A stretch of 64,000 bases of DNA from Nannocystales bacterium (lineage in GTDB: Bacteria; Myxococcota_A; Polyangia; Nannocystales; Nannocystaceae). The stretch covers positions 1-64,000 of the forward strand of contig JBOEGF010000038.1 in NCBI GenBank assembly GCA_050633305.1, given 5' to 3'. This document shows, one piece after another, positions 2,606 to 14,063 of this stretch (positions within the stretch are counted from its first letter, which is position 1; each line of letters opens with the position of its first letter). A model generated the notes under the pieces. The model made no database searches and was not told the origin of the DNA. It worked only from the letters and a program-made list of their open reading frames with translations. Position numbers and translations under genes: made by a program.

Positions 2606-3670
2606 ATGGACGCGCGACGCCTCCTCGCCTTCGTATTGCTCGCCCTGGGCCAGTCCTCCTGCGGAAAGCCGGACGCCGACGAAGCGGACACCGAATCGAC
2701 CGCCGCGAGCACCACCGGGGTCGCCGACGCCTCGACGGTCACGACGTCGGCGACGAGCACTGACGAGACCTCATCGGCGCACTCGGACTCCGGGAAGGCG
2801 GGAGGCAGTACGGGCGAGGACGATCCGACCTCCGGCGCGAGTTCGAGCGGGGAGCCCGGCTCGGAAGGGATCGTTGACACCGTTCAACTCTCGGAGCCCT
2901 ACGGCTTCGACGGTCTGTACATGGACCCTCGAGGCGTGTTGTTCGGGGCCGGCGGATGGCAGGACGACGCTGTTGTCCGTATCGGTGACGATGGGACCAT
3001 CAGTCCGTTTTCGACTGGGCACGGGGGCCCGATTCACCTGACCTTGGGCGGCGACGGCTTCTACTACGTCACGAACTACACGGACAACACGCTGCGACGC
3101 GTGCCACCCGACGGTGGGGCGCCGACAACCATTGCCACTGGTCTCGACGGACCCTCCGGGGCCGTGACCGCAGCGGACGGAACCGTCTACTTCGTCGGGT
3201 GGGGCGTCGAAGGGAACACGGGCCGCTTTCTCTACCGAGTCACCGAAGACGGCGACGTTGTCGTGCATGTCGATGGCGAAGGGCTGCAGGTCCCGCAAGG
3301 ACTCGCAGCTGACGAACGCGGCAACCTTTACGTCGCCAACGCGGTCGATGGTCGTGTCCATCGCGTTGCGCCCGAGGGCACCGTCTCCTTGCTCGGGCAG
3401 CTGCCCAGCGGCGCGAACTACAACGTCGCCCACATGCTCTACGGCAACGGACGTCTCTACGCGACCGGTGGGGAAAACAACGTCATCTACGCGATCGAGC
3501 TCGACGGCGCGGCCACGTTTTGGGGCACAGGCGACGCCGAGACGATTGACGGACCGCTCGAGCAGGCAGCCTTCGACCGCCCTGGCGGCCTCGCGTTGAG
3601 CCCCGACGGGACGACGTTGTGGGTTTCAGGCGGAGGCGGAACCAGCCTCCGTCGGATAAGGTTCAACTGA
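2606..3670 (+). CDS. Lipoprotein with NHL/Vgb-like beta-propeller
   Basis: GGAGG RBS before ATG 2606; signal peptide ending in QSSC; S/T-rich linker; repeats such as PQGLAADERGNLYVAN and FDRPGGLALSPDG. Confidence 0.8.
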   Translation: MDARRLLAFVLLALGQSSCGKPDADEADTESTAASTTGVADASTVTTSATSTDETSSAHSDSGKAGGSTGEDDPTSGASSSGEPGSEGIVDTVQLSEPYGFDGLYMDPRGVLFGAGGWQDDAVVRIGDDGTISPFSTGHGGPIHLTLGGDGFYYVTNYTDNTLRRVPPDGGAPTTIATGLDGPSGAVTAADGTVYFVGWGVEGNTGRFLYRVTEDGDVVVHVDGEGLQVPQGLAADERGNLYVANAVDGRVHRVAPEGTVSLLGQLPSGANYNVAHMLYGNGRLYATGGENNVIYAIELDGAATFWGTGDAETIDGPLEQAAFDRPGGLALSPDGTTLWVSGGGGTSLRRIRFN

Positions 3671-3888: not shown

Positions 3889-6800
3889 ATGGTCTCGTCG
3901 ACGCGATGTTGTGTAGTCCGGGCAACCCTCGGACTCTCTTTGGCCGGCGTTCTTTTCGGCTGCGACGAGCCGCCAGATGCACCGGCGAAGCCCAAGACTG
4001 CAGTTGAGCCCGCAGTTGAGACCCCTGGACCACCGGAGGCTTCCGGGCTGCCCCCGAAGCCCAGCGAGTGGGTGTGCGCCGATGCAGTATCCGAGGCGGA
4101 GCTCGACAAGAAAATCACAGCGTGGTGCGCCGAGCCCCGTGCTCAAGACAAGAGTCCCCTGGGTCCGCCCCAGCCCTTGTCAAAACTCGAGGACAAGAAC
4201 GCTTTCGACAAGTCGATGGCGGAGTTCCTCAACTCGGGTGAATACAGCACGAAGCTCGGTTGGGTGCACGACGAGCATTGGCGCCTGACCGGGCCGTGCG
4301 TGGGCGAGGCGGATGACCGTTGCGAAGAATCCTACGGTGTCCATCCGGCGGTGAGGATCTGGTATTCGCCCGAGGTCGTCGACTGGCTATGTGCCGGCCG
4401 AGCGGGGGAGATCCCCGACGGGGCAATGATCGTCAAGGAGATGCACTCCCTGGCGTCCGGATTGAAGATCGGGGTGGACTCGAAGAGCTGCATGTCGATC
4501 CAAGACGCGCCAACCGAGGCCGACTCTTGGACCCTGATGATCAAGCGAAAGAGCGAGTCCTTCGACGGATGGTACTGGGCGGGCATCAGCCGAGACGCGT
4601 CGGGGAATCCACCCATCGTGGACGCGTCTGCGTTTGTGGATGCCAAGGCTGTGCCGGTCGACCCTGCGGCGCCCGTGAACACATGGTTTCCGACCGGTGA
4701 CATCTTTGGCGCCGCGGTCCCCGGCGGCGCGAAGGTGTCCAATGTTGTCTACCCGTACAACATGTTCGGGAACTACTGCCTCAACTGCCACGCGTCGGCG
4801 GTGAGCGAGTCGACCTTCTCAACGCTTCGAAACGTGCTCGGGCTGGAGATGCAGTACAAGTGGTTTGCCGATCCGACCAAGGAAGACCCGCCGTCCGCGA
4901 AGGTCCCTGCGGGGAGTCTGCATGGAGAGGGAGGGGCGGATCCCGAGGCCTCCGACGACTATGTCAGCCCGTTCTCTGCGGCGCTGCCAACCGCGGATCC
5001 GGCCTTCGTGGAGTTCTTCGATCAGCTCTCTGAGGTGAGCTACGCCCAGGCGTGGACGAAACGCCTACCCGCGGAGACCTACGACCACGTGCCTTCAGGG
5101 TCCGAGGGCCCCAGTCAGTTCCTGACGTCGGACCAATGTGTCGGCTGTCACGACGCGACAGCCTCGAACTCCAGCACGCCGAACATGCAACTCGCCGCGG
5201 AGGACCCCAAGCGCATGGTCAACCTCTCTCCGTATGGCGAGTGGAGGGCATCACCCATGGGCCTCGCGGGTCGCGACCCGATCTTCTTCTCCCAGCTGCA
5301 GAGTGAGACCAACAACCTCCCTGCGCTCACGGAGTGCATCGAAACCACGTGCCTGCACTGCCATGGGGTGATGGGACAGCGGCAGCTCAGCATCGACACC
5401 AAGCCCAACCCCAAGTGCGACGACCTCTTTGGGGTCAAGCCGCCGGCTGAGGTGCCCTTTGGCGAGCCGTTCCGGCTCAGCATGGTCACGCAGTGGTCCG
5501 AGTCGCAACCCAACGCGGAACAGAAGTACGGGGCGTTGGCTCGCGACGGAATCTCGTGCGCCGCATGCCATCACATCGCGGACCAGGAGCTCGGCGAAGA
5601 GACCACCTTCACCGGGAACTTCATCACGGGCGCTGCCGACACCCTCTTCGGGCCCTTCGAGGATGTCGTGACGAAGCCGATGGAGCATACGCTCGGGGTC
5701 ACGCCGAAGAAGGGCGCCCAGATGTCGGACTCGAAGGTGTGTGGCACATGCCACGCCATCTTGCTGCCGAAGGTGACGAACGCGGGCAAGATCGTCGGCT
5801 ACTCATTCGAGCAAACCACGTTTCTCGAGTGGCAAAACTCCGACTCGGGTCGTGGACCAGACGCGCAGTCCTGCCAGGACTGTCACATGCCGCACACGTT
5901 CAAGGACCAGCCGCTCACCTTCGAGATCGCCAACATCGAGTCGTCGGCATTCGCCCCCACGGATGGTCGCCTTCCCGACGCAGACATCACCCTCACGCCG
6001 AGGAAGCACTATCGGCGGCACGCGTTGCACGGGCTCAACGTCTTCCTCAACGAGATGTTCCAGCAGTTTCCGCTTCTGCTGGGTTTACGGCAGATCGACT
6101 ACATGACCGGTGACGCGGTGACCCCACCGCTGATCACGGGCGAAGAGTCGATGTTGCACATGGCCAAACATGAGACGGCCACGGTCAGCGTCCAGAAGGC
6201 CGTCCGGTCGAAAGACGACATCACGGTGTCCGTCAACGTCGTCAACAAGGGGGGGCACTTCTTCCCCTCCGGGGTGGGCTTCCGACGTGCCTTCTTGGAG
6301 GTCGTGGCAGTCGACGGCAACGGGACCGCGTTGTGGGCCTCGGGTCGGACCAACTCGCTTGGGGTGTTGGTCCAGGGAACCGGAGATACGCCCCTGGACT
6401 CCGAGCTACCGCTGAAACACCCGAAAGCGTATCAGCGCCACTACACGGAGGTGACGGGGCAAGACCAGGTGCAGATCTACGAGGAGGTGATCGCGGACTC
6501 CGACGGAGCGATCAGCACGAGCTTCCTCAGACGCATCGATACGCTCAAAGACAACCGCCTACGCCCCAAGGGATTCGACCCAGCCTACTTTGCAAAGTCC
6601 GAGTCCCCCTTCGTGCAGGCCCTTGCGTACGAGTGTCCGGGCGGAGACCGGGCCAAAATGAAGGACAAGCGATGCCAAGACCCTGACTACGCTGATCCCA
6701 AGCGCACGGGACAGGACCAGCTGACCTATGTGATCGCGCTGGACCCTGTCTCCTTGGCCGAGGTCGCTGACATCAACGTGACCCTGTACTACCAGGCGAT

Positions 6801-6999
6801 TCCTCCCGCCTACCTGCAGGAGCGCTTTCGTGACGCCAATCGAGGTCCCAAGGACAAGTCGGAGATCGAGCGGCTGTACTACCTGACCAGCCACCTCAAC
6901 ACCGCCGCCGAAGGCCTCGACGACAGTGAGGTGATCCCGCAATGGAAGCTGAAGGTCGCGGCGACCTCGGCACCCGTCACCACGGGAGCCACGCCGTGA
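3889..6999 (+). CDS. Lipoprotein multiheme cytochrome c: N-terminal cytochrome P460-like domain plus five additional hemes
   Basis: Lipobox LFGC; P460-like motifs GAMIVKEMH, WTLMIK, DGWYWA and YCLNCH; further CxxCH motifs CVGCH, CLHCH, CAACH, CGTCH, CQDCH (six in total); C-terminal GHFFPSGVGFRRAFLEV domain. Confidence 0.85.
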   Translation: MVSSTRCCVVRATLGLSLAGVLFGCDEPPDAPAKPKTAVEPAVETPGPPEASGLPPKPSEWVCADAVSEAELDKKITAWCAEPRAQDKSPLGPPQPLSKLEDKNAFDKSMAEFLNSGEYSTKLGWVHDEHWRLTGPCVGEADDRCEESYGVHPAVRIWYSPEVVDWLCAGRAGEIPDGAMIVKEMHSLASGLKIGVDSKSCMSIQDAPTEADSWTLMIKRKSESFDGWYWAGISRDASGNPPIVDASAFVDAKAVPVDPAAPVNTWFPTGDIFGAAVPGGAKVSNVVYPYNMFGNYCLNCHASAVSESTFSTLRNVLGLEMQYKWFADPTKEDPPSAKVPAGSLHGEGGADPEASDDYVSPFSAALPTADPAFVEFFDQLSEVSYAQAWTKRLPAETYDHVPSGSEGPSQFLTSDQCVGCHDATASNSSTPNMQLAAEDPKRMVNLSPYGEWRASPMGLAGRDPIFFSQLQSETNNLPALTECIETTCLHCHGVMGQRQLSIDTKPNPKCDDLFGVKPPAEVPFGEPFRLSMVTQWSESQPNAEQKYGALARDGISCAACHHIADQELGEETTFTGNFITGAADTLFGPFEDVVTKPMEHTLGVTPKKGAQMSDSKVCGTCHAILLPKVTNAGKIVGYSFEQTTFLEWQNSDSGRGPDAQSCQDCHMPHTFKDQPLTFEIANIESSAFAPTDGRLPDADITLTPRKHYRRHALHGLNVFLNEMFQQFPLLLGLRQIDYMTGDAVTPPLITGEESMLHMAKHETATVSVQKAVRSKDDITVSVNVVNKGGHFFPSGVGFRRAFLEVVAVDGNGTALWASGRTNSLGVLVQGTGDTPLDSELPLKHPKAYQRHYTEVTGQDQVQIYEEVIADSDGAISTSFLRRIDTLKDNRLRPKGFDPAYFAKSESPFVQALAYECPGGDRAKMKDKRCQDPDYADPKRTGQDQLTYVIALDPVSLAEVADINVTLYYQAIPPAYLQERFRDANRGPKDKSEIERLYYLTSHLNTAAEGLDDSEVIPQWKLKVAATSAPVTTGATP

Positions 7000-8063
7000 T
7001 GCCCAACCCCCAGGACACGCTGCTCGCCTCGGTTCGGGACCGTCTTCAGATTGCAGTCGAACTCGAACTCGCAACGCTCCCTCCGTATCTCTACGCGATG
7101 TGGTCGGTGCGAGACCGCAACAGCGCCGCTGGAATGCTCGTCCGTGGCGTGCTGATGGAGGAGATGTTGCACATGGTCATGGCGTGCAACCTGCTCTCGG
7201 CTGTGGGAGGCACGCCTACGCTCGGCGAGGGAAGGCGTGTGCCGACGTACCCCGGACCGCTCCCTGCCCACTCCAAGACGGTCAACGCCTTCGATGTCCA
7301 CCTCGACCGTTTGTCCGTGGAGGCGGTTGTCGGGTTCATGCAGATCGAGCTCCCCGCTGCCGAGGATGCCCGGCCGGAGGCCGACAACTGGGAGACCATC
7401 GGGCAGTTCTACGACTCGATCGCCCGGGACCTCGCGCAGCTGGACCCCAGCTGCTTCACCGGCGGGCATCAGGTCTCCTCTGGGAGCTTCGCCCCCGGCA
7501 CGCTCTACACGGTTCAGACTCCGCAGGACGCGAGCCGAGCGATGCAGGAGATCGTCCTCCAGGGCGAAGGGCATGCACGCTCGGGGCTCGACGACCAGGG
7601 CGAGCTCGCCCACTACTACCAGTTTCGCAACCTGTACTTTGCCATGGGTGGTCGCGACCACGATGGGTTCGAGCGCTTCGATGCGGCGACCTTTCGGGAA
7701 GCACTCGACGGCGACAAGTACCGGGCGTTTCAGGACGCGGAGGTCCACCCCGTGGTCCGAGACCCAGACCCTGAGACCTACCCCGCGGGCGCCCAAGTGC
7801 TCGACCGAGGCTTCAACAGCGCGTTCTCAGACATGTTGGACTCGTTGTTCGAGAAGGTGACCGACCCGGCCAACTTCAAGACGTTGTGGGGAGGCCAGGC
7901 GCTGTGCGGGATGTTGGAGTTGGGGCCGTTCGCTGCAGCGTTGCGGCAATTCGAGGTGCCGGGCGGGGAGGGTCTTGCCGGGCCCTCGTTCCGCTACCTC
8001 CCGCCCGCCGAGCGTATGGACAGACGCGCCCGCAAGCGTCGTCTCGAGGAGGTGTCGTCATGA
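6999..8063 (+). CDS. Ferritin-like domain protein (PF12902 type, homologous to the VioB/RebD/StaD C-terminal domain)
   Basis: LQIAVELELATLPPYLYAMWS, EEMLHM...NLLSAVGG, TIGQFY, IVLQGEG, ELAHYYQF. ATG overlaps the upstream TGA (TGATG at 6997-7001). Confidence 0.88.
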   Translation: MPNPQDTLLASVRDRLQIAVELELATLPPYLYAMWSVRDRNSAAGMLVRGVLMEEMLHMVMACNLLSAVGGTPTLGEGRRVPTYPGPLPAHSKTVNAFDVHLDRLSVEAVVGFMQIELPAAEDARPEADNWETIGQFYDSIARDLAQLDPSCFTGGHQVSSGSFAPGTLYTVQTPQDASRAMQEIVLQGEGHARSGLDDQGELAHYYQFRNLYFAMGGRDHDGFERFDAATFREALDGDKYRAFQDAEVHPVVRDPDPETYPAGAQVLDRGFNSAFSDMLDSLFEKVTDPANFKTLWGGQALCGMLELGPFAAALRQFEVPGGEGLAGPSFRYLPPAERMDRRARKRRLEEVSS

Positions 8064-9871
8064 GTTACCTGGATGTTCCCCGACTTCACTTCTGCGGAAG
8101 ATTTGTGACCACGCCCTCCACGGTCAACAACATCTCGCAGAACTTCTCGCCCCGGTTGCCGACACCCGAGTCGATCAACAACCCTCAAAACTGGAACTGG
8201 AACCCCTTCGGTGGGCATCGTTTCCAGCTCTACGAGTGCAGCATCGTCCGGGTTGTGCACGCGGACGGTCGGGTGGTGACGGCGTCGTCCGAGGACCCCG
8301 TCATCGGTCTGCCGCTGCAAGGGACGGACGACCCCGTGCCCGCCAAGATGGCCGACCTGGATACCGAGCAGCAATACGTTCCCTCGATCTACGGTCTCAC
8401 GCTACGGCTCGGGGCGCCGGGGCACACGCTCGGTTGCCAGGGAGCGATGGTGCCGACCCCGCTCAACGACACATGGAGGCGTGCCCCGGTCGTCCCGGGC
8501 ACGCAAGAAGGCGGTAGCCGCAGCGGCTGGTATCAATCGGTGCTCGAGCAGATGCACTGGGCCGCGAAGGGCTCGGCCACGCTCGAGAAGCTGGCCGAGC
8601 TCAGCCCAGATCGGGTCTCGATTCGTTTTGTGTTGGACGGGTACGACATGGACTCCTACAGCCCCACGTTTCAGACGGGTCGGGTCGTGGGCACGCTGGG
8701 CCCGGCCACCGCGGACGAGCCGATCTCCTTTGTGCCCGGACGCCTGTTGCGTCCTCCCAACTTCCCGTTCGCCAACTCGGGCAAGAACCTCTTCGATGGC
8801 AACCCCGCGTACTTCGCCCCGTTCCGGGTCGATGAGCAGCGCAGCTCGCTCCTGCTCGACCTGGGCAACGCTCTGCCCACCACCGGATACGGCGGTCCGA
8901 TCCGCGACCTGGGCAGTCTCCATCCCGTCGTGCTCCCCCGAGGGCGTGCTCCCATCGTCCTCCCCGCGCTGGAAGTTCTAGATGGCGCGTATGAGCAAAA
9001 CGCAGGGGTCGTGGAGACCTCCCTCGACGCAGACGCGCTTGTGGCCCTCTCCAACGCACCGCTGCGACTCATGACCGTGGCAGCCAACGGCGGGTTGGGG
9101 CAGACGATTCTGCAAGAAGACAGCGAGGGCCGCATGTTACGAGCCGACCCGTTTACCTTGCGGATGGAGCCCGAGCACGACGCGAGTGTTCGCGTTCATG
9201 CCTTTCGTTTCGGCCGACCTGCCGCTGGCGAGACGATCGGCCTGAAGCTGACGGCCGAACGCTTACGCAACGAGGGGCAGGTGGTCCCCATGCCTCGGCA
9301 GCAAGACGGCGAGCCTCTGGCCGACCCCACCCGCGCTCTGGAGGCGTACCTCTCTGGCATGCCTCCTGCGTTCCTCGCCGATCACGGTGTGGAGCTCGTG
9401 CCGATCCCTGTCGCCGAGCCCGTCGAGGCGCTGCGTTTTCCGGAGCACCTCACCACCGACGACACCGGCGTTGCGTCGTTCGAGCTGCACGCCTCCGATC
9501 CCAAGGCGCCTCGGCTCGGCGGAGCGATCGATGGTCAGGTGTATCCGATCGCGATGGTGTGGGAAGGCCTCGAGAACCCTTGCTTGCAACACTTCGTCAG
9601 CGTGCGGGTGTTCGACGCTTACCCCATCCCCGAGGCGCCCACGTGGGCCGACGCAAAGCGCATCCTGGAGCCCTACGCCAAGCTCTTCCCCTACATGCGG
9701 CATCTCGTCGACCTCGGTGAGTTCGCCACCACCCACCGGGCGCGCGAGCAGATCCTCCGGGTTCTCTCCTACCCGGAGTCGGACCCCCGCTACATGCCCG
9801 TGACCCGCGATCTGTCCGCAAGCAAGCGTGCCTTGCTGATCGCGTGGCTGGAGAACGGCGCCGAGAAGTAG
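8060..9871 (+). CDS. VioB/RebD/StaD-like protein (N-terminal and central body, no ferritin-like domain)
   Basis: MSYLDVPRLHFCGRF...STVNN resembles the VioB start (MSILDFPRIHF...); also WNPFGGHRF, ADLD, LDLGNALP, PYAKLFPYM, YMPVTRDLSASKRALLIAWL. ATGA overlap at 8060-8063 and GAGGAGG RBS. Confidence 0.8.
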   Translation: MSYLDVPRLHFCGRFVTTPSTVNNISQNFSPRLPTPESINNPQNWNWNPFGGHRFQLYECSIVRVVHADGRVVTASSEDPVIGLPLQGTDDPVPAKMADLDTEQQYVPSIYGLTLRLGAPGHTLGCQGAMVPTPLNDTWRRAPVVPGTQEGGSRSGWYQSVLEQMHWAAKGSATLEKLAELSPDRVSIRFVLDGYDMDSYSPTFQTGRVVGTLGPATADEPISFVPGRLLRPPNFPFANSGKNLFDGNPAYFAPFRVDEQRSSLLLDLGNALPTTGYGGPIRDLGSLHPVVLPRGRAPIVLPALEVLDGAYEQNAGVVETSLDADALVALSNAPLRLMTVAANGGLGQTILQEDSEGRMLRADPFTLRMEPEHDASVRVHAFRFGRPAAGETIGLKLTAERLRNEGQVVPMPRQQDGEPLADPTRALEAYLSGMPPAFLADHGVELVPIPVAEPVEALRFPEHLTTDDTGVASFELHASDPKAPRLGGAIDGQVYPIAMVWEGLENPCLQHFVSVRVFDAYPIPEAPTWADAKRILEPYAKLFPYMRHLVDLGEFATTHRAREQILRVLSYPESDPRYMPVTRDLSASKRALLIAWLENGAEK

Positions 9872-9955
9872 GCGGACCCGAGCCGTGATGCGAAATCTTT
9901 CTGGAGACGGAGCGATACGTCTTCATCTCCGGGTACGGTGTACGAGCACGAGCCC

Positions 9956-10507
9956 ATGGCGAAGCGTGTGGTGCACCTCATTCGTCACGGCCAGTACGTG
10001 ACCGACGCTGACGACCCGCGGTACGGAAACCTGACGGTTCTGGGCCGGAGACAGGCGCGTCGGCTCGCCCGCGTGTTTGCAGATCAATCGATCGACGACG
10101 TCCATCATAGCGATTGGACCCGCGCACAGCAGACTGCCGCGCTCCTCGGTGCTGCGCTACCGTCCGTGCGCCTCCGAGAGTCCGCCCTGCTTCGAGAGGG
10201 AGACCCCGGGTCGCGCGGACGCAAGCGCACCAGGGCTCAGGCCGCGACTCGTGGCCGCATGGACGAGGCGTTCTCGCAGTTCATACGACCTTGTCGCGGA
10301 GCCGACCGTCGCGAACTCGTCGTATGCCACGGCAACCTCATCCGATACCTCGTCATGAGGGCACTGGATGTGCCGACGGGCGGATGGCTTCGGCTCGTTG
10401 TCGCGCATTGCAGCATCACCACCATCGTCGTGGTTCCCACGGACCTCCGTGTTCGCTGCGTCAACGCGCTTGGCCACCTGCCCGAACACCAACGTACCTT
10501 GGTGTGA
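9956..10507 (+). CDS. Histidine phosphatase family protein, PGAM5-like
   Basis: HLIRHGQY, LTVLGRRQA, RAQQTA, LLREGDP, ELVVCHGNLIRYLVMRAL...GWLRL...HCSIT. Confidence 0.88.
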   Translation: MAKRVVHLIRHGQYVTDADDPRYGNLTVLGRRQARRLARVFADQSIDDVHHSDWTRAQQTAALLGAALPSVRLRESALLREGDPGSRGRKRTRAQAATRGRMDEAFSQFIRPCRGADRRELVVCHGNLIRYLVMRALDVPTGGWLRLVVAHCSITTIVVVPTDLRVRCVNALGHLPEHQRTLV

Positions 10508-11478: not shown

Positions 11479-12393
11479 TCATGCAAAGGCCGCGGTGATC
11501 GCCGCGAGCCGGACGCGGAGCTTCGCGCCCGCGAACTCGAGGAACGCCCGCACTTTTGCGGAGACATGTCGTGCGTCTGGGTGGACGAGGTGGACGGGGA
11601 TTGGACCGCGCTCGTCATCGGCGAGCACGCGGACGAGCCGACCCGCGGCGATCGCATCATGGACCTGGTACGAGAGCAGCCGGGTGACGCCCCAGCCTGA
11701 CTCCGCAGCATGAAGTCCGGCCGCGATGGTGTTGGCGCACAGCCGCGGCTCCAAAGTGACACTTCGAGTCTCGTCGACGCCGAAGTCCCATTGGACGCTG
11801 GGGGCTTGCGAGCGGCTGACGGCAACGACGTCGTGGTGCAGGAGGTCTTCGGGCTCGAGTGGAGGGCCGTGCTCCTCGAGGTAGGGGGGCGCGGCCACGA
11901 CGACACTGCGGACGGACCCGACCCGGATCGCCCGTAAGCTGGAATCGGGGAGGTGGCCGATACGGACCGCGACGTCCATGCCTTCGTCGATGAGGTGCAC
12001 GATTCGGTCGAGGAAGAGCGTGCGGGCGTCGACGGCGGGGTGGAGGTCGAGGAACTCGCCGAGGACGGGCAAGACATGGGACTGGCCGAACATGACAGGG
12101 GCGGTCACGCGAAGCGTTCCCTTGGCTCGAACGAATGCCCCTGTCGCCGCCGCCTCGGCGGTGTCGAGCTCGGATAGGATCCGGCGGCAATCCTCGACGT
12201 AGCGACCGCCGGCGTCGGTGAGGGCGAGACGTCTCGTCGTTCGGGTGAGGAGTTGGGTGTCGAGGTGATCTTCCAAGCTGGCGACGGCACGGGTTACCGA
12301 TGGTGCGCTCACCCGCAGCGCTCGAGCGGCGCCTGAAAAGGACCCCTCGTCGACCACCCGGACAAACACCTCCATCGCGCCAAGCCGGTCCAC
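11479..12393 (-). CDS. LysR-family transcriptional regulator (CrgA/DmlR-like)
   Basis: HTH region MEVFVRVVDEGSFSGAARAL...LLTRTTRRLALTDAG; LIDEGMDVAVRIG; SAKVRAFLEF. Confidence 0.95.
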   Translation of the reverse strand: MDRLGAMEVFVRVVDEGSFSGAARALRVSAPSVTRAVASLEDHLDTQLLTRTTRRLALTDAGGRYVEDCRRILSELDTAEAAATGAFVRAKGTLRVTAPVMFGQSHVLPVLGEFLDLHPAVDARTLFLDRIVHLIDEGMDVAVRIGHLPDSSLRAIRVGSVRSVVVAAPPYLEEHGPPLEPEDLLHHDVVAVSRSQAPSVQWDFGVDETRSVTLEPRLCANTIAAGLHAAESGWGVTRLLSYQVHDAIAAGRLVRVLADDERGPIPVHLVHPDARHVSAKVRAFLEFAGAKLRVRLAAITAAFA

Positions 12394-12403
12394 GTCAGCA
12401 TTG

Positions 12404-12418
12404 TTGCAGAATCTGAAA
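12404..12418. promoter_or_regulatory. Candidate LysR recognition site
   Basis: Near-palindrome TTGCAGAATCTGAAA (T-N11-A) in the divergent LysR/PNPOx gap. Confidence 0.5.
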
Positions 12419-12488
12419 GAGTCGGTTGCGGAGTTTCGGGATTCCGCACGTCGCGATCAAGGGTCACAGTCCACAGCAGGACTTGGCG

Positions 12489-13388
12489 ATGGTCACCTCA
12501 ACCTCCCCCAACAACCTCCCTTCGCCCTGGCACGCTGGGGAGGTGGAGCTGCAACGATCGGTCGGGTCGTACGAGAAGATGGCCGTGGTCGGCCCCAAGG
12601 TCATCCGGCCGTACATGCCAGACCAGCACCGGAGGTTCTTCGAGGAGCTGCCGTTCATCGTGCTTGGCTCTCTGGATCACTCCGATCGACCGTGGGCAAC
12701 GCTGCGAGCCGGAGAGCCCGGGTTCGTTCACTCGCCAGACGACACGCACCTCAGGATTGCGGCGGGTGGGGACGAGCACGATCCGGCCGCATTCGAGGTT
12801 GGTGCGTCGGTCGGGATGCTGGGGATTCAGCCCCATACACGTCGCCGAAATCGAGCCAACGGTGTCGTGCAACCCAGCGACACGGGTGGGCTGCATGTGC
12901 ACGTGACCCAGTCGTTTGGAAACTGTCCGCGCTTCATCACCCGGCGCGAAGCGGTCTTCAAACCGCTCGTGGACCGGGCCCCAGCGGCCGAGCACCTCGA
13001 GCAACTCGACACCGACGCTCGGACGATGATCGAGCGAGCCGATACATTCTTCGTCGCCTCGTATGTCCGCCACGAGGATGACTCGACGGATGTCGACGTG
13101 TCTCACCGCGGCGGTCCTGCGGGGTTCGTCCGGATCGACGAGCGCGGGGCGTTGGTGGTTCCCGACTACGCGGGCAACAACTTCTTCAACACCCTCGGAA
13201 ACTTCGTCCGGCATCCCGTAGCGGGCCTGCTCTTCGTCGACTTCGAGAACGGGGACATGCTCCAAATGACCGGACGCGTGACGCTTCGCCTGGCCGAAAC
13301 CTCGGACGACGCGCAGCGGCATTGGAGCGTGACTCCGGACGCGCTCGTTCGTCGTCGCGGAGCCGTCCCGCTGCGATGGCGCACCTAG
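12489..13388 (+). CDS. Pyridoxamine 5'-phosphate oxidase-like FMN-binding protein (tandem domains)
   Basis: PWHAGE, MPDQHRRFF, TRRRNRANG, QSFGNCPRFI, ADTFFVAS, DVSHRGG.GFV, PDYAGNNFFNTLGN. Confidence 0.9.
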   Translation: MVTSTSPNNLPSPWHAGEVELQRSVGSYEKMAVVGPKVIRPYMPDQHRRFFEELPFIVLGSLDHSDRPWATLRAGEPGFVHSPDDTHLRIAAGGDEHDPAAFEVGASVGMLGIQPHTRRRNRANGVVQPSDTGGLHVHVTQSFGNCPRFITRREAVFKPLVDRAPAAEHLEQLDTDARTMIERADTFFVASYVRHEDDSTDVDVSHRGGPAGFVRIDERGALVVPDYAGNNFFNTLGNFVRHPVAGLLFVDFENGDMLQMTGRVTLRLAETSDDAQRHWSVTPDALVRRRGAVPLRWRT

Positions 13389-13430
13389 GGTCGCCCTCAT
13401 CTGCACACCACGAGACACCACGAGATACCG

Positions 13431-14063
13431 ATGAAACTGTACGAAAGCCCCATCTCCGGCCACGCCCATCGGGCGCGCGCATTCCTTCTTCTTCTCGGCG
13501 TGCCGTTCGAATCGGTCGTGGTCGACCTCCTCAACGGGGAGCATCGCGGTCCGGAATTCCTCGCGATCAATCCGCTGGGGCAGATTCCGGTGCTCGTCGA
13601 TGGGGACACGGTCGTTCGCGACTCGACCGCCATTCTTGTCTATCTCGCGCTCAGCCACGACCCCGAGCGGACCTGGCTGCCGCAGGATCCCGGTTTGGCG
13701 GCGCAGGTTCAGTCCTGGCTCTCGATTAGCTCGCGCGAGCTGTGGGCGGGCCCAAGCTCGGCGCGGCTGGTGAAGTTGTTTGGGGCGAAGATCGACCATG
13801 AGCGAGCGCTGTCGACGGCGGACACCGTGCTGGGTTCGTTGTTCGAGCCGCACCTCGCGGACCAGAAGTGGTTGGTCGGTTCGCGTCCGACGATTGCGGA
13901 CGTCGCCTGCTACAGCTACATCCGTGTCGCGCCCGAAGGCGGCGTCAGCCTGGAGCCTTACCCCAACGTACGTGCATGGCTGGACCGACTCGAGGCGCTG
14001 CCCGGGTTCGACCCCATGCCCGCGGCGGCCGACCTCCTTGCGTCAGGCACTGGCGAGCCCTGA
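13431..14063 (+). CDS. Glutathione S-transferase
   Basis: SGHAHR, INPLGQIPVL, RDSTAILVYLA, PTIADVACYSY, YPNVRAWL. Confidence 0.93.
   Translation: MKLYESPISGHAHRARAFLLLLGVPFESVVVDLLNGEHRGPEFLAINPLGQIPVLVDGDTVVRDSTAILVYLALSHDPERTWLPQDPGLAAQVQSWLSISSRELWAGPSSARLVKLFGAKIDHERALSTADTVLGSLFEPHLADQKWLVGSRPTIADVACYSYIRVAPEGGVSLEPYPNVRAWLDRLEALPGFDPMPAAADLLASGTGEP

Follow-up and report, generated by a model that had tools for sequence, protein, structure and literature searches.

Whether three adjacent genes encoding an exported multiheme cytochrome, a ferritin-like protein and a relative of the chromopyrrolic acid synthases StaD and RebD form one functional system is the question raised by a locus of a Nannocystales bacterium (NCBI GenBank assembly GCA_050633305.1, contig JBOEGF010000038.1). 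The stretch analyzed, hereafter the window, comprises positions 1 to 64,000 of the forward strand and is the start of contig C38 of this 11-Mb genome, which is 92% complete. Gene A (3889..6999) encodes a lipoprotein hexaheme cytochrome c of 1036 residues, recognized by its open reading frame (ORF), its CxxCH count and its relatives; gene B (6999..8063) encodes a PF12902 ferritin-like protein of 354 residues, the counterpart of the C-terminal part of VioB/StaD/RebD; and gene C (8060..9871) encodes a 603-residue homologue of the N-terminal ~650 residues of StaD/RebD, as indicated by profile alignment and a structural model. All three lie on the + strand. A preliminary description of the window had proposed a recurring three-gene pathway linking periplasmic nitrogen or electron-transfer chemistry to a VioB-type enzyme pair. 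Our analysis leads, with moderate confidence, to a different answer: the trio would be an operon restricted to this lineage, in which two separately mobile modules have been joined, an exported P460-type redox protein (A) and a putative heme b/diiron coupling enzyme (C and B), which are probably co-transcribed and not obligatorily coupled.

The evidence for this answer comes mainly from gene neighborhoods. No relative of B or C was found in any of 80 loci of A relatives, and hidden Markov model (HMM) searches detected no relative of B, C or f15 (an exported monoheme cytochrome discussed below) in 49 close A loci, 42 of which extend to at least 10 kb. Beyond synteny at the level of kinship, the A loci had no common neighbor, and A is also solitary in Paracoccus. 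Conversely, the N-terminal domain of A was absent from all 111 C loci, one of which has a distant five-heme protein. The usual companion of C is B, which in 55 of 95 C loci follows C directly or forms a fusion with it, and which precedes C in none of those 95; one further C locus, from a distant subfamily (L233), has B first, as in this operon. The spread of both modules is patchy: none of 6 congeners yielded C, which was detected in 3 of 71 family members, full-length A was found in 0 of 59 relatives, and among 400 genomes of the phylum, A occurred in one and C in two others. Recurrence of the trio was observed only in a Nannocystaceae metagenome-assembled genome (MAG), in which KUG77_15630 and KUG77_15640 are 89% and 87% identical and are taken to be adjacent from locus tags and accessions. 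Since A is solitary elsewhere, C travels with B and not with A, and the distribution is patchy, the operon appears to consist of two separately mobile modules. The trio is thus probably a local, lineage-restricted arrangement rather than a conserved system, and the recurring pathway originally proposed finds no counterpart in the neighborhoods of either A or C, an outcome that the preliminary description had itself named as grounds for rejection.

The three ORFs and both of their overlaps are as first described. A and B are joined by a TGATG stop-start overlap (6997..7001, + strand) and B and C by an ATGA overlap (8060..8063, + strand) with a GGAGG site upstream. For B, however, an ATG at 6942 is another possible start (the database entry for B has 373 residues), and its use would replace the TGATG junction by an overlap of 58 bases. 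Overlaps of -1 or -4 were counted in 110 of 621 same-strand neighbors in parts of four contigs of the same genome, using a crude gene caller; being this common, they argue for an operon and co-transcription only and not for shared chemistry. The G+C content at third codon positions is 0.81-0.83 for A, B and C (window mean 0.80 +/- 0.03), and a promoter and terminator scan of the locus gave nothing above the shuffle level. From this layout, we infer that the three genes are probably co-transcribed.

The hydrophobic N-terminus of A ends in LFGC25, which provides a lipobox Cys25, and six CxxCH motifs are found at residues 297, 417, 488, 557, 618 and 662; the product is therefore, as had been suggested, a predicted exported hexaheme cytochrome. 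Its full-length relatives (39-52% identity) are spread over many phyla. Residues 100-322 (4186..4854, + strand) form a domain with the cytochrome P460/c'-beta fold. The five best structural matches of its AlphaFold2 model (predicted local distance difference test score, pLDDT, 72) are all P460 or c'-beta proteins (Z 7.3-10.1; next 4.9), and HHalign gave 98% for the N-terminal domain against a 28-sequence PF16694 profile. The PF16694 model was matched by 23 of 26 A-family N-terminal domains, with relatives reaching an E value of 1.6e-8; A itself scored 16.3 bits as a whole protein and 23.4 bits as the domain alone, below the gathering score of 27. Because a sequence-profile search of the PDB with this domain did not recover P460, the assignment, which agrees with that of the preliminary description, relies on the fold match and HHalign. 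Five more small PF16694-like proteins are encoded in this genome (G000), on contigs C5, C7, C11, C22 and C27 (L220-L224).

The pocket of this domain differs from that of active P460 proteins. Besides the CxxCH at 297-301, the domain holds K183 (4435-4437) and T215 (4531-4533). K183 falls in the column of the P460 cross-link Lys and is kept in 44 of 44 A-family sequences, a correspondence of sequence position only. T215 (TLMIK) aligns with Asp102 of McP460 (DFMVK), in a column occupied by Thr in 38, Ala in five and Ser in one of the 44 sequences; a distal carboxylate at the Ne Glu96/Mc Asp102 position was thus found in 0 of 44. In the portion of PMC11928373 available to us, a P460 that has the cross-link Lys and lacks the distal carboxylate is inactive toward NH2OH, and by this criterion hydroxylamine oxidation by A is unlikely. 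His152, near the pocket, is invariant.

Residues 395-1025 of A (5071..6963, + strand) were identified by profile matches as a five-heme domain, kin to the cytochrome c552 of PDB 5ZE8 (profile E value 3e-8), whose source organism we take to be Thermochromatium tepidum, and, by a weak match, to ExtKL/MccSep, without the selenocysteine (Sec) or Cys of the latter. The position of the MccSep Sec is occupied in A by Val796, which is invariant in 23 of 23 sequences, when the peptide given in the accessible part of bioRxiv 10.1101/2025.11.18.688581 is aligned by eye; C483 and C510 are also invariant; in MccSep, heme 2 has His/Cys ligation, with C239 as the Cys. Judged from sequence and model, A would connect a ligand site of the P460 type to a chain of five hemes, and it fits neither the usual hydroxylamine oxidases nor the polysulfide reductases. 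Fusions of P460 and pentaheme domains are present in the ESM Atlas as unnamed clusters, and four more matches to the five-heme domain were noted in this genome, on contigs C4, C10, C21 and C24. In the mechanism that we propose for the first module, A would be exported and tethered to the membrane, and its P460-type heme, with the cross-link Lys and no carboxylate, would have NO, NH2OH or peroxide as its small ligand and exchange electrons with the five-heme chain. The most likely function of A would be that of a redox terminal for ligand binding or detoxification, not that of a hydroxylamine oxidase.

The second module consists of B and C. B matches PF12902 with an E value of 5e-53, which bears out its ferritin-like identity, and no other PF12902 gene turned up in the genome; in a tree of its relatives it stands on a long branch whose position could not be placed. 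E23, E55, H58, E117, E190, H205 and M305 of B are invariant in 43 of 43 relatives as well as in StaD and RebD, and from the six Glu/His residues of this set we infer a putative diiron site. C has no sequence match in Pfam, NCBIfam or the PDB. A profile of 66 C-family sequences is colinear over ~490 columns with Streptomyces clavuligerus StaD and a Pseudonocardia RebD-like protein (HHalign 98.7 and 98.4, respectively), the names StaD and RebD being our reading of those sequence clusters; identity is ~22-25% at the profile level. The model of C (pLDDT 88) comprises a beta-barrel, two immunoglobulin-like (Ig-like) domains and a helical C-terminal domain, and searches of the whole model with Foldseek and VIA-align retrieved nothing clear-cut (best Z 5.9, to generic barrels or Ig-like folds). 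TIGR04492, the VioB model, describes one polypeptide of ~1000 residues with a cut-off of 1250 bits; it matched neither B nor C, and fused C-B relatives reached 11-28 bits, the best scoring 27.6. The kinship of C with the N-terminal part of VioB, proposed earlier, is thus upheld by the StaD/RebD-like alignments and not by the TIGR04492 HMM. Fused C-B proteins exist among the relatives, and long fused forms of C (1151-3285 residues) were not found in a search that is weak as evidence. Neither B nor C has a signal-peptide-like or Tat-like start in a hydropathy and motif check, in agreement with the preliminary description. By homology, C and B correspond to a StaD/RebD-type protein, distantly related and split in two, with the order of its parts reversed. 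C-family proteins have at least 648 matches in metagenomes. The match of ferritin-like proteins of Rhizobium plasmids (H57-H75) to a fused C-B query begins at residue 501 or 524, so that these proteins may carry part of the two-Met domain described below; some of their genes adjoin GMC oxidoreductase genes.

The helical domain of C (80 residues; C residues 524-601, 9629..9862, + strand) is a candidate non-covalent heme site. It contains two Met residues, M546 (9695-9697) and M579 (9794-9796), both invariant in 66 of 66 C-family sequences and kept in 18 of 18 sequences of a set that includes StaD, RebD and four free proteins of 74-77 residues from C loci. The domain gave no significant match in PDB or Pfam profile searches, and the spacing of its Met residues presumably resembles that of class I cytochrome c without CxxCH. 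M546 and M579 are proposed as candidate heme b ligands of C. As stated in the part of a 2021 review that could be consulted (PMC9705886), VioB binds heme b and its structure had not yet been solved. The free two-Met proteins (L130 881-1102, L103 17471-17698, L176 1111-1341, L148 5557-5784, L105 and L104) are candidate minimal heme b proteins. In the proposed mechanism, C and B would form a split VioB/StaD/RebD-type enzyme in which C holds heme b between M546 and M579 and B holds a carboxylate/His diiron site; together, in a reaction linked to peroxide or O2, they may oxidatively couple a small substrate that is not the indole-3-pyruvate (IPA) imine derived from a Trp oxidase.

A tighter relationship between the modules has a smaller though real chance of being correct. 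C-family heme proteins may work with an exported P460-superfamily cytochrome, usually f15, which A replaces here; at the cell envelope, A would donate electrons to B and C or accept them, or act as an oxidase upstream of the pair. Several observations favor such a coupled system and count against two independent modules. f15 is present in 13 of the 111 C loci, 70 of which have at least 1.5 kb of upstream sequence, and in nine it lies directly upstream of the C-family gene, in the very slot that A takes in the window. One CxxCH is found in 72 of 75 f15 sequences, and K223 is kept in 81 of 81, within a motif (FPxGxxELKxxW) spaced like the P460 Lys motif; this motif is also the best local match of the P460 profile on f15 (20.9 vs at most 20.1 in 30 block shuffles). 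A and C share genomes above background: an unlinked C relative was found in 8 of 48 A genomes, with 2 of 9 vs 0 of 242 in Rhodanobacteraceae and 3 of 5 vs 10 of 106 in Kofleriaceae (2 of 4, p 0.06, without the chosen center genome), counts that are confounded by kinship and genome size and in which few candidates were scored per genome. Moreover, the operon has been retained over ~12% protein divergence, and the heme and diiron assignments on which the two-module mechanism draws come from conservation alone. The P460 fold of f15 is, however, not established: the HHalign probability is just 7-10%, direct comparison with A gave no significant match, and PF16694 matched weakly, at the CxxCH only, in 2 of 42 relatives. 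The nine adjacencies comprise the second C copy of this genome, a gammaproteobacterial MAG, Gloeothece, a metagenome contig and five Kofleriaceae, so five of the nine represent one family; in addition, A is never beside C elsewhere, and direct contact with B and C, which have no signal peptides, would require a further export route. The second C paralogue (G000:C13 225423-229300; L081 9424-13301, minus strand) carries a fused jacalin-like domain and directly follows an f15 lipoprotein gene (G000:C13 227801-229300, minus strand), in a locus that has no ferritin-like gene, and 5 of 42 f15 relatives have an MVL lectin tail; these tails may hint at surface roles. Overall, f15 offers the best indication, though not a conclusive one, that C has an exported cytochrome as its partner. 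A looser form of the link first proposed retains some backing from the f15 adjacencies and the shared genomes of A and C, whereas its hydroxylamine part is weakened by the Thr, Ala or Ser found at the distal position of A. Another C-family cluster that contains f15 also encodes a 1439-residue pentaheme protein with a vWA-like region and a choice-of-anchor X-like tail (L103 2661-6977).

It is improbable that B and C make a bisindole or a related Trp-derived dimer, as VioB and StaD do. In this scheme, an enzyme acting in trans, such as the LodA-like oxidase of contig C24, would provide the imine, the ebo genes of contig C8 would take care of export, and A would be unrelated. The homology and the conserved residues shared with StaD/RebD fit this proposal, as do the C-B loci located near ebo genes (EboD in 4 of 99) or a LodA gene (1 of 99), and the genome does contain possible components on other contigs: EboD, EboE, UbiA and EboF-like genes with the same adjacent GAF gene as in one C-B locus (L137), here without C-B (G000:C8 507800-517900; L227), a 940-residue LodA-like gene with a LodB-like partner (G000:C24 177576-181474; L228 7577-11475), and a RebH-like halogenase gene (G000:C24 403330-404601). 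In the accessible part of PMC12904256, ebo genes are tied to scytonemin precursor export and indole production; PF12902 genes adjoin fungal lodA genes according to the available portion of PMC4417212, and that of PMC5133447 makes no mention of ferritin-like genes with ebo. Against a bisindole product, the best family member stays at 27.6 bits of the 1250 required by TIGR04492, the identity to StaD/RebD is low, and relatives of StaO, RebO, StaP, RebC and RebH were found in 0 of 99 C loci, many of which are short (44 reach 10 kb) or kin. The genome itself, at its 92% completeness, gave no StaO match, and its best RebO match covers 119 residues at 29%. The earlier view that this is not a violacein or indolocarbazole cluster is therefore sustained. 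The nitrogen version of the original proposal, in which A oxidizes hydroxylamine or handles NO and thereby feeds an N-N or nitrosating reaction of B and C, is very unlikely. The P460 fold and invariant Lys of A would suit it, His152 could perhaps act as an alternative base, and the attached five-heme chain would drain electrons as in hydroxylamine oxidoreductase (HAO). But no carboxylate occupies the Asp102/Glu96 position in any of the 44 sequences, the trio is not conserved, and no recognized nitrogen-cycle gene was present among the neighbor families common to A loci, five of which were scanned against Pfam.

Other neighbors were also recorded. Among the 99 C loci, DedA genes occurred in 20, a GAF protein gene in 12, two types of TonB receptor in 19 and 13, and two propeller types in 10 and 11. 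Clusters of ebo genes enclose or adjoin the C-B pair at L182, L185, L184 and L137, loci from Mycetohabitans, Aureibacter, Gloeothece and one metagenome contig. At L208 and L210, from two Lysobacterales genomes, smpB (named from its sequence) adjoins C-B operons that include TonB receptor and DedA genes, which suggests insertion at the same spot. In the window, a Vgb/SGL/ScyE-like beta-propeller lipoprotein is encoded on the same strand at 2606-3670, 218 bases upstream of A; because its relatives were found in 0 of 99 C loci and 0 of 49 A loci, it was not reckoned as part of the operon. A histidine phosphatase family gene (9938-10507) lies directly downstream of C on the same strand. It is followed, 1.6-4 kb past C, by a trio of LysR, pyridoxamine-oxidase-like and GST genes (11479-14063; names read from the sequences), and a ~50% identical trio adjoins the C-family locus of another Nannocystaceae genome (G130:C250; L216 1-3104).

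A broader and more speculative idea is that VioB-N-type proteins act as heme modules, binding heme b at a cytochrome-c-like, bis-Met site. In several phyla, they would belong to an undescribed redox system together with a P460-superfamily cytochrome that is exported and cross-linked through Lys (f15 or A), with or without a diiron partner. If this were true, the P460 fold would also serve chemistry other than that of hydroxylamine and NO, and the bis-Met site would locate the heme of VioB, StaD and RebD. These are widely used enzymes for which we found no solved structure (the consulted part of PMC9705886, 2021; no PDB sequence match for C), and the split, well-modeled C and the free two-Met proteins of about 75 residues put the question of the heme site within direct experimental reach. 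The large, oxidase-free C family implies a chemistry not yet known, and the P460-pentaheme fusion is a widespread unnamed architecture with an HAO-like layout that lacks the catalytic base. Searches by title and abstract, with most subscription journals and supplements outside their reach, found no literature on the C-B family in its split form, on the fusion of P460 and pentaheme domains or on the pairing with f15. The trio itself matters less, since it seems a local assembly unless A replaces the f15 cytochrome; but the A and C families and two leads, the two-Met heme site and the f15 partner, merit bench work.

Compared with known systems, A, B and C belong to established superfamilies yet fall short of what defines the active P460, MccSep and VioB families. 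With the P460/c'-beta superfamily (2JE3, 6HIU, 6AMG and 7EAD; PF16694), A shares the beta-sheet fold, the C-terminal CxxCH and the Lys at the cross-link position; it differs in its fused five-heme domain, its size as a 1036-residue lipoprotein, its long insertions and the Thr in place of the distal Glu/Asp, and within this superfamily its pocket is nearest to that of the inactive NsP460. With cytochrome c552 and the polysulfide reductase MccSep/ExtKL, as described in the available part of bioRxiv 10.1101/2025.11.18.688581, it has in common five CxxCH motifs and a C-terminal domain with GH-x-x-P-x-G, whereas the Val in place of the catalytic Sec/Cys, the additional P460 heme domain and the weak homology set it apart from MccSep/ExtKL. 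The Caulobacter ferritin-like protein 3HL1 (PF12902) matches B with an E value of 3e-10, but it is a stand-alone structural-genomics protein and the match spans only residues 13-166 of B. Finally, the chromopyrrolic acid (IPA-imine dimer) synthases VioB, StaD and RebD share with C and B a colinear N-terminal part, a ferritin-like C-terminal part with the same Glu/His residues, and the same two Met residues. Unlike them, C and B are encoded by two genes in reversed order, lie far under the family cut-off and are not accompanied by Trp oxidase or tailoring genes; the neighbors of the C family are instead TonB receptors, DedA proteins, propellers, ebo genes and a monoheme cytochrome.

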